Of a stretch of 32,000 nucleotides of DNA, positions 12,801-29,725 are shown piece by piece (within the stretch, counting starts at the first letter, position 1; the number at the start of each line of letters is the position of its first letter). The notes below the pieces were generated by a model. The model was given only the letters and a program-made list of their open reading frames with translations. It ran no database searches and had not been told where the DNA came from. A program made the translations under genes and the position numbers. Source of the stretch: Telmatocola sphagniphila (lineage in GTDB: Bacteria; Planctomycetota; Planctomycetia; Gemmatales; Gemmataceae); the NCBI RefSeq assembly GCF_018398935.1, contig NZ_CP074694.1:6060001-6092000 (forward strand), written 5' to 3'.

Positions 12801-13958
12801 TTATTTACTTTTGGTTTTGGCGGGAGGAGACGGTTTGGAATCGCTTCCGGAACCGTTGAAAATCAAGAACCAGCCAACGAGTCCCACTAACCAGGTAACG
12901 GCGCCAATCATCAACCAGGTGCTGGTTTTGATACCGCCTTCTTCCTTCCGGGGCAGGATCGGTGCCGAGGAAGTTTCTTCATCCGAGTAGTTCTCCAGCG
13001 AACCGGAGAAAGCGTTGTGAGGTTCCGGCAACTCTTCTTCAGACAGCGGTTCGGTGTGCGGTTGAGTGATCTGCACCGAGCTGCTGAAGGCCTGAAGGGT
13101 TTGTGCGATTTCGATCACGGTCGGTCGTAGAGCGGCATCTTTGCTCAAACAGCGTTCCACGAGATCTGCGACGATGGGATCAACATCGTTTCGGAGGGTG
13201 TCGAGTCGAGCAGGGTTAGACTGCTGAATCAAAAGCAGCACTTCAATGGGGCTACCCGCTTGAAAGGGCGTTTGAGCCGAAAGTAGGTAGTAGAGGCAAG
13301 CTCCCAGGCCGTAAGCATCGGTACGGGAATCGAAAGCGGTGCTACCGATGCGTTCCGGAGCAAGAAACTCGACCGGGCCGAGATCGGCCTCAGGATCGTA
13401 GGGGCGGTCGTGAATGGTGGGACGCTGCGGCAGAAGGCCGACATCGGCCACCTTGATGCTGGAATCGGGAGAAGGGCGGAGCGATTTGCTGCCGTCGCCG
13501 CGGATTTTTTCGACGACCGGTTGGAGCATTAGGCTACTCGGCGAGAGCCAACCCTGGTAGAAACCGGCATCGTGAGCCGCCTGGATTCCGGTCGCCGCCT
13601 GCCGGATATACTCGCAGGCCAGCGATTGCGGCACGGCCCCCATTTCGACGACGAACTGATTCAGCTCGGCCGATTGGAGATACTCGCTGGCGGTGTACGG
13701 AACGCCGTCTTGCAAACCGGCATCGAGGGTGGCCACCAGATGCGGATGGTGCATGGCCGTGGCAGCTTGAACGCGCAGGGCATATTCTTCGGGCGATTCG
13801 AAATTCTTGAGAAGTTCCGGGTCCCAGCGACGCAGCACCACGGGTAATTGGAGCGTCAGATGATCCGCCCGATGAACTTGAGCTAACAGGCTTTTAGAGA
13901 GTTGATCCCCAATGCGGTAATCGCCGAAATTCAACGGTGCACCTTTTCGAAAATCCAA
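12801..13958 (-). CDS. Tail-anchored Ser/Thr-kinase-fold protein with degenerate catalytic motifs (predicted pseudokinase)
   Basis: Kinase-fold landmarks are retained: HHPHLV after an alphaC-like Glu, DVG in place of DFG, APE (FLAPERI), DAYGLG and ALRP. The G-loop reads LSKSLLAQV, VAIK-Lys reads VVLRR, and HRDLKPxN reads YQGWLSPSS. A C-terminal TM helix (TWLMIGAVTWLVGLVGWFLIF) is present. The only available start near the 5' end is a TTG at 13958, so the start is uncertain. Confidence 0.65.
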   Translation of the reverse strand: MDFRKGAPLNFGDYRIGDQLSKSLLAQVHRADHLTLQLPVVLRRWDPELLKNFESPEEYALRVQAATAMHHPHLVATLDAGLQDGVPYTASEYLQSAELNQFVVEMGAVPQSLACEYIRQAATGIQAAHDAGFYQGWLSPSSLMLQPVVEKIRGDGSKSLRPSPDSSIKVADVGLLPQRPTIHDRPYDPEADLGPVEFLAPERIGSTAFDSRTDAYGLGACLYYLLSAQTPFQAGSPIEVLLLIQQSNPARLDTLRNDVDPIVADLVERCLSKDAALRPTVIEIAQTLQAFSSSVQITQPHTEPLSEEELPEPHNAFSGSLENYSDEETSSAPILPRKEEGGIKTSTWLMIGAVTWLVGLVGWFLIFNGSGSDSKPSPPAKTKSK

Positions 13959-14013
13959 CCGTCAGGCGATTTTGAATTTATAGGTTTGAAAATGCGTTCG
14001 GCGAGTTCGGCTT

Positions 14014-14481
14014 TCAGACCGTATCGTTTCGTGCATTCCGCTCCTGAGCGAACTTCTGGATTAAAAGTCGTTGTTCCTCGGTCTCTACCGAGCCGGGACG
14101 GAGCATTCGAATATGGTTGATGGCATCGTCCCCCGGCATCCCTTTGGAGACCAGGTAGAGAGCCAGAACCGTGCCGGTGCGCCCTTTACCGGCGAGGCAA
14201 TGGACCATGATGCCCATATTCGAATCGCGGGCCTTTTGAATCACCCGCAGGCATTTCTCGATATCTTCCGTGGTGGGAACAGTCATATCTTCAATCGGGA
14301 CGTGAACGTTCATCAAGCCCTGATTGTCGATCCATTTGCGGGGCAGGGCCTGTTCGGTAAGAGTCAGCACGATATCGATTCCCTGATCCCGTAACCAGGC
14401 GAGCTCGGTTTCATCGTGCGGCATGGCCGAGGCCGCCAGAAACGGCTTTTCGATCCAGGAAAATCCATAAGGCTGAGACAT
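14014..14481 (-). CDS. Dual-specificity (Cys-based) protein phosphatase
   Basis: The HCxxGxxR(T) P-loop is intact (VHCLAGKGRTGT) in a roughly 155-aa DSP-sized protein. The start is set at ATG 14481 (MSQPYGF). The track start at 14502 is a TTG only 5 nt from the upstream gene stop. Confidence 0.85.
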   Translation of the reverse strand: MSQPYGFSWIEKPFLAASAMPHDETELAWLRDQGIDIVLTLTEQALPRKWIDNQGLMNVHVPIEDMTVPTTEDIEKCLRVIQKARDSNMGIMVHCLAGKGRTGTVLALYLVSKGMPGDDAINHIRMLRPGSVETEEQRLLIQKFAQERNARNDTV

Positions 14482-14506
14482 CACTGTCCTTTTAAGGCCC
14501 AAAAAA

Positions 14507-19756: not shown

Positions 19757-20470
19757 ATGTTGCTCCTCACCTTGGCTATGTTATTGGTTATCTCCCCTGT
19801 TTCGCGCGCTGCCGAATCGGGGTTCATTGACAAGACTTTCAAAAACGCGGATGGTACAGAATCCAAATACGTGGTATTCGTGCCGCACGACCTGAAGCCG
19901 GATGCTCATCCGCCGATTATTCTTTCGTTGCATGGTTCGGGAGAAACCAAGGGTGGTAGCAAGATGCCGGTGGAAGTGGGGATCGGTACCGCCATTAAGA
20001 AGCGGGAAAAGACTTTCCCCTTTGTGGTGGTGATTCCCCAATCGGAAAAGCGAACCTGGCAGGCGACCAGCGAGGACGGCCAGCGGGCTTTGAAAATGCT
20101 GGAAGCAACTGAAAAAGAATACAAAACCGATCCGAAACGGGTCTACCTGACCGGTCTTTCGATGGGCGGATACGGAACCTGGAGTATTGCGGCCAAGTAT
20201 CCCGATCGCTGGGCGGCCATCGTGCCGATCTGCGGTGGCGGCGATCCCAAGAACGCGGAAGCGATCTGTAAGATTCCCTGCTGGTGCTTCCACGGCGATA
20301 AAGACGCCGCCGTGAAGGTGGAACGATCCCGGGAGATGATCGAAGCATTGAAGAAAGCGGGCGGCGAACCGAAATATACCGAGTATCCCGGTATCGGTCA
20401 TAACAGCTGGGACAAGGCGTACGATACTGACGAACTCTACGTTTGGTTGTCGAAGCAGAGCAAGAAGTAG
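19757..20470 (+). CDS. Secreted alpha/beta-hydrolase (carboxylesterase / PHB-depolymerase-like predicted peptidase family)
   Basis: It has a signal peptide (MLLLTLAMLLVISPVSRA), an oxyanion-region LHGSGE and the nucleophile elbow GLSMGG. The acid and His regions are FHGDKDAAV and GIGHNSW. Confidence 0.8.
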   Translation: MLLLTLAMLLVISPVSRAAESGFIDKTFKNADGTESKYVVFVPHDLKPDAHPPIILSLHGSGETKGGSKMPVEVGIGTAIKKREKTFPFVVVIPQSEKRTWQATSEDGQRALKMLEATEKEYKTDPKRVYLTGLSMGGYGTWSIAAKYPDRWAAIVPICGGGDPKNAEAICKIPCWCFHGDKDAAVKVERSREMIEALKKAGGEPKYTEYPGIGHNSWDKAYDTDELYVWLSKQSKK

Positions 20471-20485
20471 TGCGGGTAAAGCGAA

Positions 20486-20890
20486 ATGATCGAACTGCCC
20501 ACATTCGAGCAGATTGGAAAAACGATAGGAGCATTGATCCAGACCGATGGGAAAATAACGGTGCTAGTGAGCGGTTATGAAGGGCCAGGAAAAGGAGTTC
20601 GCGGTATTCCCAAGATGAATGGGCTCATAAAGGCGCATGTGGAAGCTCAGGCCGCCGTGCTTATGCGAATGCGGAATCTTTCGCAAGCTACCTTGAGAAT
20701 CAATCGCGTACCTTGTCCAACGATGAATGTGAAAGTGCTGGGTTGCGACGAAGCGTTGCCTCACATGTTGCCGGAATCAGCGAGTTTGACTGTTATCGGT
20801 CCGGACGAGTTTTCGAGAGAATATATTGGGAAAATGGATCCTCCTCGAACGAGAATTCAAGGTCTTGAGGGAGCGATTGAATTTGCATGA
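20486..20890 (+). CDS. Stand-alone SCP1.201/DddA-like nucleic-acid (cytidine) deaminase toxin domain
   Basis: A 134-aa ORF. AHVEAQAAVLMRMRNLSQATLRINRVPCPTMNVKVLGCDEALPHMLPESASLTVIGP parallels the DddA toxin core as I recall it (GHVEGQSALFMRDNGISEGLVFHNNPEGTCGFCVNMTETLLPENAKMTVVPP). That includes the HxE zinc/catalytic motif (H51/E53, nt 20636-20644), the Cys ligands C77 and C87, and the LP..LP...L.V tail. Upstream, SGxxGP (VSGYEGPG) also matches. No signal peptide or N-terminal trafficking domain is present. Confidence 0.75.
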   Translation: MIELPTFEQIGKTIGALIQTDGKITVLVSGYEGPGKGVRGIPKMNGLIKAHVEAQAAVLMRMRNLSQATLRINRVPCPTMNVKVLGCDEALPHMLPESASLTVIGPDEFSREYIGKMDPPRTRIQGLEGAIEFA

Positions 20891-21330
20891 CAATCGAAAC
20901 ATCTACCAAAGTCTGGGCTTTTCACAATTCGAACTCCGACGAGAAGGCGGAGTTGGATAATATCGATGATCTTTGGGATCATCTGGATAACTTTCGAAAA
21001 CGCTATTCGAATTCAGTTGGTATCTTGATCGCTCCGGATGGGCAGCACTTGAATCTCGGTCGTTCGAATGTTATGAACGACTACACCGTACTACCGCAGG
21101 AATTGGGATACGTCGAACATTGTCCCGCCGACGGGAATCCACCGTATCTAGCACCGGTAGAAGATCCTTCAATCAGTATCGGAGATGGAATACTGGTTTT
21201 CCGATATGCGGATGAATTATCTGAAATACCGCGTCGTTATTGCGTGAAGCTATCGAAAATGAAAGAAATTGTACGTCATTTTATGGCGACGAACCGATTG
21301 CCCGACTGGATAATGTGGGAACAGATTTAA
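20887..21330 (+). CDS. Putative cognate immunity protein (Imm1-like)
   Basis: The start ATG overlaps the toxin stop (ATGA at 20887-20890). It is a 147-aa acidic cytoplasmic protein whose C-terminus (IVRHFMATNRLPDWIMWEQI) resembles the conserved Trp-containing end of the Imm1 family associated with deaminase toxins (Pfam PF14430, from memory). Position and size fit polymorphic-toxin immunity genes. Confidence 0.55.
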   Translation: MTIETSTKVWAFHNSNSDEKAELDNIDDLWDHLDNFRKRYSNSVGILIAPDGQHLNLGRSNVMNDYTVLPQELGYVEHCPADGNPPYLAPVEDPSISIGDGILVFRYADELSEIPRRYCVKLSKMKEIVRHFMATNRLPDWIMWEQI

Positions 21331-21357
21331 AGCGATCACTTAATTGGGAGTTTTAAT

Positions 21358-22926
21358 ATGAGTGAACTGGATCGACGCGGTTTTATAGCCGCAGCTTCTG
21401 TCGCCGGCACGGCGATGGCCATGACCGCGAAGAGCTACGCCAATGTGCTGGGCTCCAACGGCAAAATCAACGTCGGCTTCCTCGGTGTCGGCGGACGATG
21501 CCAGCAGCACATCGACGTCGTCCTCGACATGAAGGAAGAAGGCAAGGACGTCGAACCCTTCGCCGTCTGCGATGTGTGGGACGGCGATGAGACCCTGGGC
21601 AATCGCAGCAATCCGAAACACAAAGACAAACGCAAAGGGCGCGGCCTTTATCCTTCGGCCAAGACCTGCGGCATCGATGCCAACGACAAGACCCGTGTGA
21701 CGAAGGATTATCGCAAAATCCTCGAAAATAAAGACGTCGACGTCGTCTGCATCGCCGCTCCCGACCACTGGCATGCTCGCATGGCCATTGACGGCTTGAA
21801 TGCCGGCAAGCACGTCTACTGCGAAAAGCCGATGACCCGAACGGTCAACGAAGCCTGGGAACTTTACAACACCTGGAAGAAGACCGGACAGGTTATGACC
21901 GTCGGCGTGCAGTCGATGGCCGACCCGACCTGGCTTGAAGCTTACAAGTACATTCAAGCTGGGAACTTGGGACATATCTTCCAGGGCCAGACCAGCTACT
22001 ATCGCAACTCCGATGTCGGCCAGTGGCGTTATTATCCCCTCCGTAAGGAAATGACCCCCAAGACCATCGATTGGGATATGTGGCTGGGAACCGGATTCGA
22101 ATGTGCCGGTCAGAAGATTGGCCCAACAGCCAAAGAAATGCCATTCGACCGAGCCGTGTGGGCTCAGTGGCGCTGCTACTGGCCGTTCGGCGGCGGTATG
22201 TTCACCGACCTGTTCGTTCACCAGACGACTCACCTGCTGGCCGCCATGGGTCTGCGGGAACCGGCTCGCGTGGTCGGCGCGGGCGGGATCTACTTCGAAT
22301 ACGACGGCCGGGACGTTCCTGACGTCGCGACGGTGGTAGCCGATTACATCGAAGGTGCTCAGGTCATCATTTCCGCGACGATGTGCAATGGCACCCAACT
22401 GGGTGAAGTCATCCGCGGTAAATTGGCGACCATTAAATTTGGCGATAACATCGGCGGCGACTACGTCTCCGGTTTCGACGTCTTCGGTGAAGCGGTGGCC
22501 GGTGGGGCCGCCAAACCGACTGGCGGCTACAAGGAGCCTATCCACTCCTATAAGAGCCCGTTTGTCGGCAAGCAGGGCCTCAACGCCACTTACAATCTCT
22601 GGGCGAACTTCCTGGAGTGCGTCAAGGCTCGCAAGCAGGAAACCCTGTCCACGCCGTTCCTGGGGGCTTCGGCCTTTACCACGGTCAACCTGGGCGTGCA
22701 GTCTTACCGCAAGGGCAAGGCTTACATGTTCGATAAGGAATCGCATCTGGCCAAGGATGCGGACTCCAGCTGGGCCGACAAGTGGGAAGCTCGCTCGAAA
22801 CAGCGCGGCAAGCCGAACAATATCATTGGCTGGGCCGGGGGCGACAAGGGTTGCTCGCTGCATCCGCCGGAATACCAGAAGCTGGAAGGCCCCTGGGTTG
22901 ATGGCAAAGATCCTGCCGCAGGTTGA
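21358..22926 (+). CDS. Gfo/Idh/MocA-family oxidoreductase with a Tat signal (paralog of 25007..26473)
   Basis: It has a Tat motif (DRRGFIAAASVAGTAMA), a Rossmann start (VGFLGVGGR) and APDHWHARMAIDGLNAGKHVYCEKPMT. It shares long colinear strings with the 25007 gene (RVTKDYR, MPFDRA.WAQWRCY, PPEY.KL.G.W..G.DPA). The antisense 507-aa ORF 21340..22863 is treated as a shadow. Confidence 0.85.
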   Translation: MSELDRRGFIAAASVAGTAMAMTAKSYANVLGSNGKINVGFLGVGGRCQQHIDVVLDMKEEGKDVEPFAVCDVWDGDETLGNRSNPKHKDKRKGRGLYPSAKTCGIDANDKTRVTKDYRKILENKDVDVVCIAAPDHWHARMAIDGLNAGKHVYCEKPMTRTVNEAWELYNTWKKTGQVMTVGVQSMADPTWLEAYKYIQAGNLGHIFQGQTSYYRNSDVGQWRYYPLRKEMTPKTIDWDMWLGTGFECAGQKIGPTAKEMPFDRAVWAQWRCYWPFGGGMFTDLFVHQTTHLLAAMGLREPARVVGAGGIYFEYDGRDVPDVATVVADYIEGAQVIISATMCNGTQLGEVIRGKLATIKFGDNIGGDYVSGFDVFGEAVAGGAAKPTGGYKEPIHSYKSPFVGKQGLNATYNLWANFLECVKARKQETLSTPFLGASAFTTVNLGVQSYRKGKAYMFDKESHLAKDADSSWADKWEARSKQRGKPNNIIGWAGGDKGCSLHPPEYQKLEGPWVDGKDPAAG

Positions 22927-29272: not shown

Positions 29273-29725
29273 ATGTTCAAACGGTTCAGGATGCGGATAC
29301 CATTCGCGATCGTTCAAGAAATCGTGGCTCAGGCGGAGAGGGAGCTTCCCAGCGAATGCTGCGGTTTACTGGCGGCGGACGACGCAGTACGGCCGGGTGA
29401 GGCCGAAATCATCGAGATTTCGCGGCATTTTGAGCTGACCAATCAACTCAATTCGCCGATACGATTCGAGTCGGAACCCTCTAGCCTGTTCGCGGCGATG
29501 AAAGAAATGCGGCGACGAAAGTGGGAACTGGTAGCCATTTATCACTCTCACCCCACGAGTCCGCCGATTCCCAGCCGGTTCGATCTGGCCAATAATTTCT
29601 ACGGCGACCAAGTGCAACATCTGATTCTAGGTCGAGTGGAACGGCAGTGGTTAGCCCGGAGTTGGTGGCTGCTCGAAACGGGATACGACGAAGCCGAAAT
29701 GGACTGGGGCGACCCGATAGTGTGA
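29273..29725 (+). CDS. JAB/MPN+ (JAMM) metalloprotease-domain protein (Mov34/MPN/PAD-1 family)
   Basis: The JAMM motif is complete: E in SECCGLL and HSHPTSPPIPSRFD (H-x-H-x7-S-x2-D). It is a 150-aa single-domain protein. The start could instead be M7 (29291). Confidence 0.85.
   Translation: MFKRFRMRIPFAIVQEIVAQAERELPSECCGLLAADDAVRPGEAEIIEISRHFELTNQLNSPIRFESEPSSLFAAMKEMRRRKWELVAIYHSHPTSPPIPSRFDLANNFYGDQVQHLILGRVERQWLARSWWLLETGYDEAEMDWGDPIV

Follow-up and report, generated by a model that had tools for sequence, protein, structure and literature searches.

The prototype of the PF14428 family of cytosine deaminase toxins is DddA of Burkholderia cenocepacia (6u08), which forms the C-terminal tip of a large protein delivered by a type VI secretion system (T6SS), and the gene for its immunity protein, DddI, is located directly downstream. 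Two other described systems of the same family, Sdd-Sddi (PMC11472066, PMC13034033) and SCP1.201-SCP1.202 (Imm1) of Streptomyces (PMC3239186), likewise place the toxin first and the inhibitor second. For Sdd-Sddi, an open reading frame (ORF) of 136-140 amino acids (aa) directly downstream encodes a protein that fully inhibits the deaminase (PMC13034033). Here we describe a locus from the planctomycete Telmatocola sphagniphila (Gemmataceae), located within a 32-kb stretch of DNA that was analyzed as a whole and is called the window below. At positions 20486 to 20890 on the plus strand, the window carries a gene for a predicted 134-aa, domain-only DddA-like/SCP1.201 cytosine deaminase, which NCBI lists as a hypothetical protein (locus tag KIH39_24325). 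A gene for a 147-aa Imm1-family protein follows on the same strand at 20887 to 21330, and its start codon overlaps the toxin stop codon (ATGA).

Very probably, these two genes constitute an intact, solitary PF14428/PF14430 toxin-immunity cassette of ~850 bp that was horizontally inserted into a conserved esterase-oxidoreductase gene pair. The cassette resembles DddA-DddI in that its toxin shares the Pfam family, the fold and the HVExQ motif, the immunity gene is directly downstream, and DddI is the best Protein Data Bank (PDB) match of the immunity protein profile. However, the T. sphagniphila toxin consists of the domain only, rather than the tip of a large delivered protein. The Sdd enzymes are actinobacterial and longer, and they have been reduced to 146-177 aa by engineered truncation, whereas the window toxin is naturally 134 aa. 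By description, Sddi (136-140 aa) and the 147-aa immunity protein of the window are similar in size.

The gene pair and its insertion site

The toxin ORF matches the Pfam DddA-like profile PF14428 over residues 11-109 (profile positions 24-126 of 137) with an E value of 8.4e-16 and a score of 58.5 bits, compared with a cut-off of 25. The original prediction for this locus held that the ORF begins essentially at the deaminase domain. Indeed, the match begins 10 residues in, and the protein is essentially the domain alone. Also in agreement with that account, the toxin has no delivery domain, and its N-terminus (MIELPTFEQIGKTIGALIQTDGK) carries no hydrophobic signal-like stretch. Pfam scans of 18 other large ORFs in the window assigned them to housekeeping families only, and genes for secretion, Rhs or PAAR proteins and mobile elements were absent among them. 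The ORF falls outside the classical polymorphic-toxin architecture, wherein an N-terminal trafficking, repeat or processing region is joined to a C-terminal tip.

As had been noted earlier, a TAG at 20468-20470 and a TAA at 20477-20479 precede the ATG at 20486 in one frame, the TAG being the stop codon of the esterase gene upstream. Because of these in-frame stops, translation cannot begin before 20486, which fixes the N-terminus of the toxin and its length of 134 aa. The upstream junction (20468 to 20485, plus strand) comprises the esterase TAG, the second in-frame TAA and a 15-nt spacer.

Because the toxin ORF is, by chance, in frame with the esterase gene, a sequencing or assembly frameshift might have severed the ORF from a longer upstream toxin gene, as the original prediction itself had cautioned. 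We consider this explanation to be vanishingly improbable and have rejected it. Two stop codons separate the esterase from the toxin ORF, and the upstream gene encodes an entire esterase, which stops at residue 237, as do its orthologues. Moreover, a JGI metagenome contig of 1364 bp (L013) matches window positions 20140-21503 with 99.7% identity. None of its four substitutions is in the toxin gene, and its stops and ORFs are identical to those at the window junction. Because this independent contig agrees, the junction and its stops are real rather than an artefact of assembly. The N-terminus of the esterase resembles a signal peptide, and the esterase and toxin frames match across the intervening TAG TGC GGG TAA AGC GAA. 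This frame match is probably a coincidence because a fusion would require reading through two stops.

The downstream gene matches the Imm1 profile PF14430 at 22.4 bits, which is exactly the gathering cut-off. Its product is 39% and 32% identical to the products of Imm1-annotated genes located downstream of the relatives P0005 and P0004, respectively, the latter being an Rhs protein, and the C-terminal tryptophan (W144) is conserved. The best PDB match of the immunity profile is DddI (6u08_B; E 0.035), over the region of this tryptophan. Thus the HMM match, the location directly downstream of the toxin and the conserved C-terminal tryptophan all agree with membership in Imm1, and the earlier view of the toxin as part of a two-gene cassette is supported, its partner being an immunity gene. 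Judged by sequence, the cassette belongs to the PF14428/PF14430 toxin-immunity family, which was first defined by Iyer et al. (2011) and Zhang et al. (2012).

On its left, the cassette is flanked by an alpha/beta-hydrolase (esterase) gene at 19757 to 20470 and, on its right, by a Gfo/Idh/MocA oxidoreductase gene at 21358 to 22926, both on the plus strand and both assigned by Pfam and by synteny, with the esterase gene being the ancestral neighbor of the oxidoreductase gene. Empty versions of this site were sought by a metagenome search with the esterase, followed by a tblastn comparison of five window proteins with the loci found. Orthologues of the esterase (47-74% identity) are present in 47 metagenome loci, and in 31 of these the esterase gene is followed by a same-strand oxidoreductase orthologue (54-67% identical), usually 50-130 bp away. 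Most of the other loci end soon after the esterase or represent distant paralogues, and none of the 47 matched the toxin or the immunity protein by tblastn. In the window, the gap between the two genes measures 887 bp, and the 845-bp cassette fills all of it except for spacers of 15 and 27 nt at its two ends. Furthermore, the GC content at third codon positions (GC3) is 0.47 in both cassette genes compared with 0.66-0.73 in their neighbors, and in five other genomes the GC content of the cassette is 5-7 points below that of its own locus. It is from the 31 empty sites, the lack of a cassette at any of the 47 loci and the low GC3 that we recognize the cassette as an insertion.

A possible scar of the insertion is a weak 8-bp direct repeat, TAAAGCGA, found by a shared-word search of the flanks, with a left copy at 20477 to 20484 and a right copy at 21328 to 21335 that begins with the stop codon of the immunity gene. 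It is the only word of at least seven bases that is common to both flanks (shuffle P ~0.05). Each copy opens with a TAA stop, and deletion of the cassette together with one copy would leave a 41-nt spacer between the esterase and oxidoreductase genes. At another locus of this type (L022), the 9-mer GACAAGGTC occupies the equivalent flanking positions, and no comparable flanking repeats were detected at L020, L021 or L019. With a P value of ~0.05 and most other loci lacking repeats, we do not accept these direct repeats as evidence for a defined transposition mechanism.

The orthologous junction in one metagenome locus (L041:1500-2294) holds another two-gene insert, whose products are a DUF6941 protein of 133 aa (PF22091, 29.5 bits) and a protein of 129 aa that weakly matches a helix-turn-helix of the LuxR/GerE type. 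Because a different insert resides there, the junction appears permissive, which suggests that the esterase-oxidoreductase site tolerates or attracts small two-gene cassettes.

A scan of the plus strand between the esterase, the cassette and the oxidoreductase identified no promoter-like or terminator-like sites, although it relied on the sigma-70 consensus, from which planctomycete promoters may differ. As the cassette seems to lack its own promoter or terminator, its expression probably depends on read-through from the esterase operon.

Catalytic residues, predicted fold and substrate

The SCP1.201 signature consists of [HD]xEx[KQ] in helix 2, an asparagine that ends strand 3, and two zinc-binding cysteines (Iyer et al. 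2011, PMC3239186). All of these are present in the window toxin as HVEAQ (H51, E53, Q55), N73, C77 and C87. The codons for H51-V52-E53 are located at 20636 to 20644 (plus strand), and the invariant alignment columns of H51 and E53 point to these residues as a zinc ligand and the catalytic glutamate. The two remaining zinc ligands would be the cysteines of the C77-x9-C87 loop (PCPTMNVKVLGC; 20714 to 20746, plus strand), whose codons lie at 20714-20716 and 20744-20746, and C77, G86 and C87 are likewise invariant. Altogether, the family-invariant residues H51, E53, N73, P76, C77, G86, C87, S29, G15 and L91 are kept in the window toxin.

The original prediction was correct in stating that the two cysteines are nine residues apart and that DddA has C-x2-C, as can be seen in an alignment to 6u08 and 9jo8. 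It then treated this difference as a sign of a novel, divergent subfamily, a claim that it was prepared to drop if family alignments proved such spacing to be ordinary. The tabulation of cysteine spacing and architectures among homologues that it had proposed reveals that the spacing is variable and that standalone and fused forms are both present. Measured after the HxE motif in the best 149 of 431 HMMER relatives and the query, the gap is x2 in 16 sequences, x3 in 1, x5 in 85, x6 in 8, x7 in 15, x8 in 5, x9 in 12 and x10 to x16 in 7. The commonest form in the family is PCxGxxGC (x5), and given the wide range of lengths among relatives, the cysteine loop is best viewed as a variable region of the family. 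Thus an attractive lead has to be corrected: a long loop between the two cysteines is nothing unusual in PF14428, and it is the C-x2-C of DddA that is in the minority. The loop PCPTMNVKVLGC fits the PC[PV]Txx[PA]RS[LP]GC pattern of the closest relatives, and C-x9-C is common to the standalone relatives described below and to the Rhs-linked P0004. Judging from these alignments, C-x9-C is a mark of the toxin's own clade rather than of a new subfamily with unpredictable chemistry.

The claim that a tail of roughly 30 aa follows the core stands only in part. The family-conserved GPDGFxxTYxGLPD aligns with residues 105-118 (GPDEFSREYIGKMD), in which the model places the final beta-strand (110-114). 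About half of the supposed tail therefore belongs to the core, and only ~14-16 residues form a true extension. Within this extension, the P.T.I.GL part is common to the clade, and EGAIEFA is unique to the window toxin.

An AlphaFold2 model built from a 45-sequence alignment (pLDDT 94.3, pTM 0.89) contains strands at residues 14-19 and 24-28, a helix at 52-62 that includes HVE, a strand at 67-72, the cysteine loop, a helix at 87-94 and a hairpin formed by 100-104 and 110-114. This beta-beta-alpha-beta-alpha-beta-beta order is the deaminase topology. The cysteine loop is modeled with a pLDDT of 94-97, and the helix that follows it begins at C87. In a Foldseek comparison with the PDB, DddA structures (6u08, 8e5d/e, 9jo8) rank at the top with E values of 4e-8 to 1e-7, a TM score of ~0.60 and 21-26% identity, and free-nucleotide cytidine deaminases come next (E ~1e-3). 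Because DddA ranks first but with these modest values of TM score and identity, the toxin is predicted to have a DddA-like fold without being a close DddA homologue.

The original prediction cautioned that the substrate cannot be assumed, and this caution was justified. The PF14428 members are split between those that act on single-stranded DNA (ssDNA) and those that act on double-stranded DNA (dsDNA): most tested members deaminate ssDNA, and dsDNA activity is confined to DddA and about ten neighbors (Huang et al., bioRxiv 10.1101/2023.05.21.541555). The dsDNA specificity of DddA, being limited to a small subclade, is not transferable to the window toxin, which falls outside this subclade with 28% identity in the family alignment and a TM score of 0.60. 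Moreover, DddA combines C-x2-C with a 10-residue C-terminal hairpin insertion, whereas the window toxin has C-x9-C and lacks the insertion, as do its relatives. In addition, the distance from E53 to C77 is 24 residues, equal to that between E190 and C214 of SflSdd and between E193 and C217 of Air1Sdd at their published positions. Because most tested PF14428 members are ssDNA deaminases, the hairpin insertion is absent, and the Glu-Cys distance matches Sdd, deamination of cytosine in ssDNA seems somewhat likelier than a DddA-type activity on dsDNA.

Delivered relatives and a standalone clade

At E<=1e-3, an exhaustive HMMER search identified 431 cluster representatives, of which 108 also pass E<=1e-10. 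When either the toxin or the immunity protein served as the query of a word-indexed protein search, it matched nothing but itself. A scan of species-representative genomes with a 6-sequence alignment returned 12 loci, none of them from Telmatocola, in which the domain is found at the C-terminus of a 1354-aa Rhs protein of Chondromyces apiculatus (L001), of proteins of 1998 and 2202 aa, and of proteins of 274-492 aa. The nearest long relative, P0004, is an 1134-aa Rhs/YD-shell protein that is 52% identical to the window toxin and has the same C-x9-C, and its PCPTxDPRSxGC loop is also that of the window toxin. Other long relatives are further Rhs proteins or carriers of PT-HINT domains. Collectively, the toxin domains of Rhs- or HINT-linked PF14428 proteins such as P0004 and the C. 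apiculatus protein are 48-55% identical to the window toxin. However, these proteins carry Rhs/YD-shell or HINT regions and adjoin T6SS genes, whereas the window toxin has neither.

If homologues were always C-terminal domains of longer proteins and the window copy were clearly decayed, the original prediction would have given up its view of a toxin that exists without a delivery region. Instead, a profile search uncovered at least 15 domain-only relatives of 131-134 aa that are 50-58% identical to the window toxin (members: P0003, P0005, P0158, P0161, P0162, P0164, P0170, P0172, P0175, P0176, P0178 and P0186-P0191). These proteins start with M..TPGG..P.Y.GGK, carry C-x9-C, and end with GLPDP....I.GL. 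In a neighbor-joining tree, the window toxin clusters with this standalone clade, and the Rhs-linked P0004 and P0013 form the next branch out. One 133-aa member, P0191, has HGEAH and PGPT, wherein the Val of HVE and the first zinc-binding Cys are each replaced by Gly, and it is probably either an inactivated copy or a product of long-read sequencing error.

Four variants of 172 aa (P0165, P0173, P0174 and P0185, of which P0174 is at L070:10001-10519) carry a 41-residue N-terminal extension that aligns with P0025 over the C-terminal block of its PT-HINT domain (EEYHAFFVG...VH[ND]G). A Pfam scan did not recognize this short HINT remnant, which became apparent from a pairwise alignment to a PF07591-containing relative. 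The start methionine of the 131-134-aa forms is conserved internally in these variants (PLM[TI]TPGG). Because the variants keep a PT-HINT remnant, their sequences indicate that the clade descends from long toxins that were autoproteolytically processed by HINT.

The contexts of seven clade loci were read (the window and those of P0003, P0005/L014, P0161/L020, P0176/L021, P0189/L022 and P0174/L070), together with those of the distant short relatives P0010, P0052 and P0083. A homologue of the immunity gene is located directly downstream in all seven of the former and all three of the latter. Eight of these ten downstream genes have an Imm1 Pfam match, and the products at L021 and L022 are instead 47-63% identical to the Imm1 protein at L014. 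The cassettes stand alone, and the genes around them, largely housekeeping ones, are unrelated between loci. At L020, the cassette resides between a cREC_REC gene and an rlmN-like radical SAM gene, and at L021 it sits between zwf (G6PD) and opcA. In the latter case (L021:6438-10102), it is inside the conserved zwf-opcA pair, and both of these genes are in pieces, probably owing to frameshift errors of assembly. The L014 and L022 loci are syntenic, with a response-regulator/kinase block on one side and an MFS transporter gene on the other. The L070 cassette adjoins PhdYeFM, Uma2 and YhcG genes in an island rich in toxin-antitoxin genes.

At both L014 (6790-7980) and L022 (6237-7448), a gene for a ~400-aa SepQ_C/FliMN_C (SctQ/FliN-like) protein precedes the cassette, after the response-regulator and histidine-kinase genes. 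An extra aspartyl-protease gene lies between it and the cassette at L022, where a DDE transposase gene is also found 5 kb downstream. We considered the SepQ_C/FliMN_C gene as a link to secretion and rejected it, given that it follows regulator/kinase genes, is absent at other loci, and recurs in two loci that are merely syntenic.

Where dS can be computed, dN/dS is 0.07-0.32 for the toxin and 0.17-0.37 for the immunity protein, values that are rough because dS is near saturation. Nevertheless, dN is clearly far below dS, and thus the standalone form is conserved and selected rather than a collection of fragments that decay independently. The window toxin is 49-57% and its immunity protein 32-39% identical to those of the clade, compared with 63-74% and 47-63% within the clade. 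The two have thus diverged together, as would be expected of a co-evolving pair on an early branch rather than of a decaying toxin beside a conserved immunity protein. At 10 of 46 invariant or nearly invariant columns of 22 other clade sequences, the window toxin differs, whereas other standalone members differ at 0-3 and P0004 differs at 8. Even so, its invariant residues, confident structural model, own start codon and translational coupling give no visible sign of decay.

We found no description in the literature of a clade of this kind, in which solitary, domain-only DddA-like/Imm1 modules form a coherent group, are under selection and reside in housekeeping operons. This clade represents a modest extension of existing knowledge, given that solo toxin cassettes are already a known concept. 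Its practical interest is that, within the SCP1.201/Imm1 family, it supplies a conserved set of deaminases that are minimal by nature (131-134 aa) and come with their cognate inhibitors. Base-editor engineers reach such a size only by truncation, and these natural pairs are candidates for compact editors with off-switches.

Possible modes of deployment

The toxin corresponds to a 'released warhead', a zinc-dependent cytosine deaminase that would bind zinc via H51, C77 and C87, employ E53 for catalysis, and most probably convert C to U in DNA. Read-through of the esterase operon would express the cassette, and the overlapping downstream ORF would yield an immunity protein that neutralizes the toxin by direct 1:1 binding, by analogy with DddI-DddA and Sddi-Sdd. 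Perhaps the pair operates as a self-contained intracellular module of the addiction type, meaning a selfish, toxin-antitoxin-like element, and the protection of its host from related Rhs- or HINT-delivered deaminases of neighbors might arise as a by-product. This is the deployment that we favor, albeit tentatively and with less than even confidence, because the toxin has no trafficking domain, the clade is solitary in housekeeping loci, the only partner is an immunity gene, and purifying selection is evident. We place export as a cargo effector second, retention as a reserve warhead with orphan immunity third, and an abortive-infection or mutator function last. The original prediction had offered a role akin to toxin-antitoxin or abortive-infection systems and that of an orphan warhead, both of which are retained here as readings, but it omitted the exported cargo effector.

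Several considerations weigh against an addiction-type role. Addiction depends on an immunity protein that is less stable than the toxin, and nothing points to such a difference here. No DNA-binding Pfam domain is detected in the immunity protein, which places the pair outside the definition of type II toxin-antitoxin systems, and the order of toxin before immunity gene is the syntax of polymorphic toxins rather than the usual one of type II systems. NCBIfam and PADLOC gave no matches for the toxin or the immunity protein, and tblastn searches of plasmids and phages revealed no homologues of the cassette. The family is overwhelmingly composed of delivered interbacterial toxins: among 149 motif-bearing sequences (147 relatives, the query and one sequence outside the cysteine-spacing count), the domain is preceded by more than 60 residues in 121 and by more than 500 in 13. 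The gene for the nearest long relative, P0004, sits in a vgrG-DUF2169-DUF2169 cluster and is followed by an Imm1 gene. Furthermore, the dN/dS values are rough, with dS near saturation, and the window copy is on a long branch, which may reflect either an outgroup lineage like that of P0004 or relaxed constraint. The L013 contig differs from the window at too few positions to separate these two possibilities.

The delivered relatives raise the possibility that the toxin is a cargo effector that is secreted non-covalently by an apparatus encoded elsewhere, for example inside the Hcp ring or on a VgrG/PAAR adaptor of a T6SS, and that kills neighbors lacking an Imm1 gene. We consider this to be unlikely, but it has real attractions. 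The vgrG-linked Rhs toxin P0004 is the nearest long relative, the other relatives are Rhs or HINT toxins, and purifying selection on the toxin would suit a weapon in use. Also, the ORF has almost the same extent as the fragment that is released after the DPLGL motif of Rhs proteins, as it starts ~12 residues past where this motif would end. A precedent for such a route is Tse2 of Pseudomonas aeruginosa (158 aa, with Tsi2), which is exported by the T6SS and is encoded away from the T6SS cluster. Like the window toxin, Tse2 is small, acts in the cytoplasm and has no trafficking domain, with its immunity gene downstream and its locus apart from the secretion cluster. However, its fold and activity are unrelated, and T6SS export has been demonstrated for Tse2. 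Against export of the window toxin, no hcp, vgrG, paar, adaptor or other secretion genes were found among the Pfam-scanned ORFs of the window, and secretion genes are also absent within 8-10 kb of five other clade loci. We found no mention in the literature of a T6SS in Telmatocola or Gemmataceae.

Classical orphan rhs-CT and cdiA-CT modules are located downstream of a full-length locus, include a core stretch for recombination, and usually lack their own start codon. The window cassette might similarly be a displaced or stored tip, kept mainly because its Imm1 protein shields the cell against the deaminases of competitors, and occasionally joined by recombination to an Rhs or HINT gene of full length. 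Polymorphic toxin systems are recognized to include solo toxin-immunity cassettes (Zhang et al. 2012, PMC3482391), and, as in the orphan modules, the window locus combines a toxin tip and its cognate immunity protein without a delivery part. The PT-HINT remnant upstream of the toxin in the 172-aa clade members and the long branch of the window copy also fit such a history. Moreover, the decay of cassettes of this kind does occur elsewhere, given the truncated or decayed PF14428 copies at L006:3488-3757, L011:148-342 and L012:8795-10192 (Planctomycetaceae, Actinomycetota and Pirellulaceae metagenome-assembled genomes) in addition to P0191. Nonetheless, this explanation is doubtful, as the window locus does not have the classical orphan position beside a full-length toxin gene, a core recombination arm or both. 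The neighbors are an esterase and an oxidoreductase gene, and no piece of an Rhs or HINT core that could serve as a homology arm is found in the mere 15 nt that reach to the esterase stop. The toxin gene starts with an ATG of its own, and its translation is coupled to that of the immunity gene. In addition, a clade dN/dS well below 1, with catalytic residues kept at 50-74% identity, is unexpected for unexpressed spares.

The TA-rich island around one clade member (PhdYeFM, Uma2, YhcG) and the compact, mobile two-gene form of the cassette bring to mind a function in abortive infection or stress. Phage or stress might deplete or displace Imm1, and the freed deaminase could then introduce uracil throughout phage and host DNA that is replicating and single-stranded, or act as a transient mutator. 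DNA deaminase toxins are reported to be mutagenic to survivors (PMC7901873), which is compatible with such a function. We nevertheless regard this function as quite improbable. The PADLOC defense models gave no matches, five of the six loci lack a defense-island context, the toxin has no sensor domain, and no phage or plasmid homologues were found by tblastn.

To return to the addiction-type reading, it is conceivable, though doubtful, that the clade as a whole constitutes a distinct class of solitary, mobile, intracellular DNA-deaminase toxin-antitoxin (or abortive-infection/mutator) modules that were derived from HINT/Rhs warheads and persist by addiction. If this were true, the clade would be the first family of toxin-antitoxin systems to employ a DddA/Sdd-type DNA cytosine deaminase as the toxin. 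Our literature search for standalone deaminase toxin-antitoxin or defense systems found nothing usable. The broader evolutionary question is whether a warhead that has been freed from its delivery vehicle, and that is found alone in housekeeping operons yet is still under purifying selection, serves as a weapon, as a spare part or as a module for addiction. Thanks to its clear empty-site comparison, the T. sphagniphila cassette offers a tidy test case.

The other window ORFs classified by Pfam encode an M16 peptidase, isocitrate dehydrogenase, Gfo/Idh/MocA oxidoreductases, argininosuccinate synthase, a PMT glycosyltransferase, DUF1559 and similar families. On the minus strand, the interval 12801-14502 holds a gene for a 161-aa dual-specificity phosphatase, which also matches PF22785 ('polymorphic toxin system DSP-PTPase'), next to a Ser/Thr protein kinase gene. 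Although the family name links it to conflict systems, this is probably an ordinary signaling pair. Lastly, a 150-aa prokaryotic JAB-domain protein (PF14464), unrelated to the cassette, is encoded at 29273-29725 on the plus strand, and the JAB domain was placed in the deaminase-like fold by Iyer et al. 2011 (PMC3239186).

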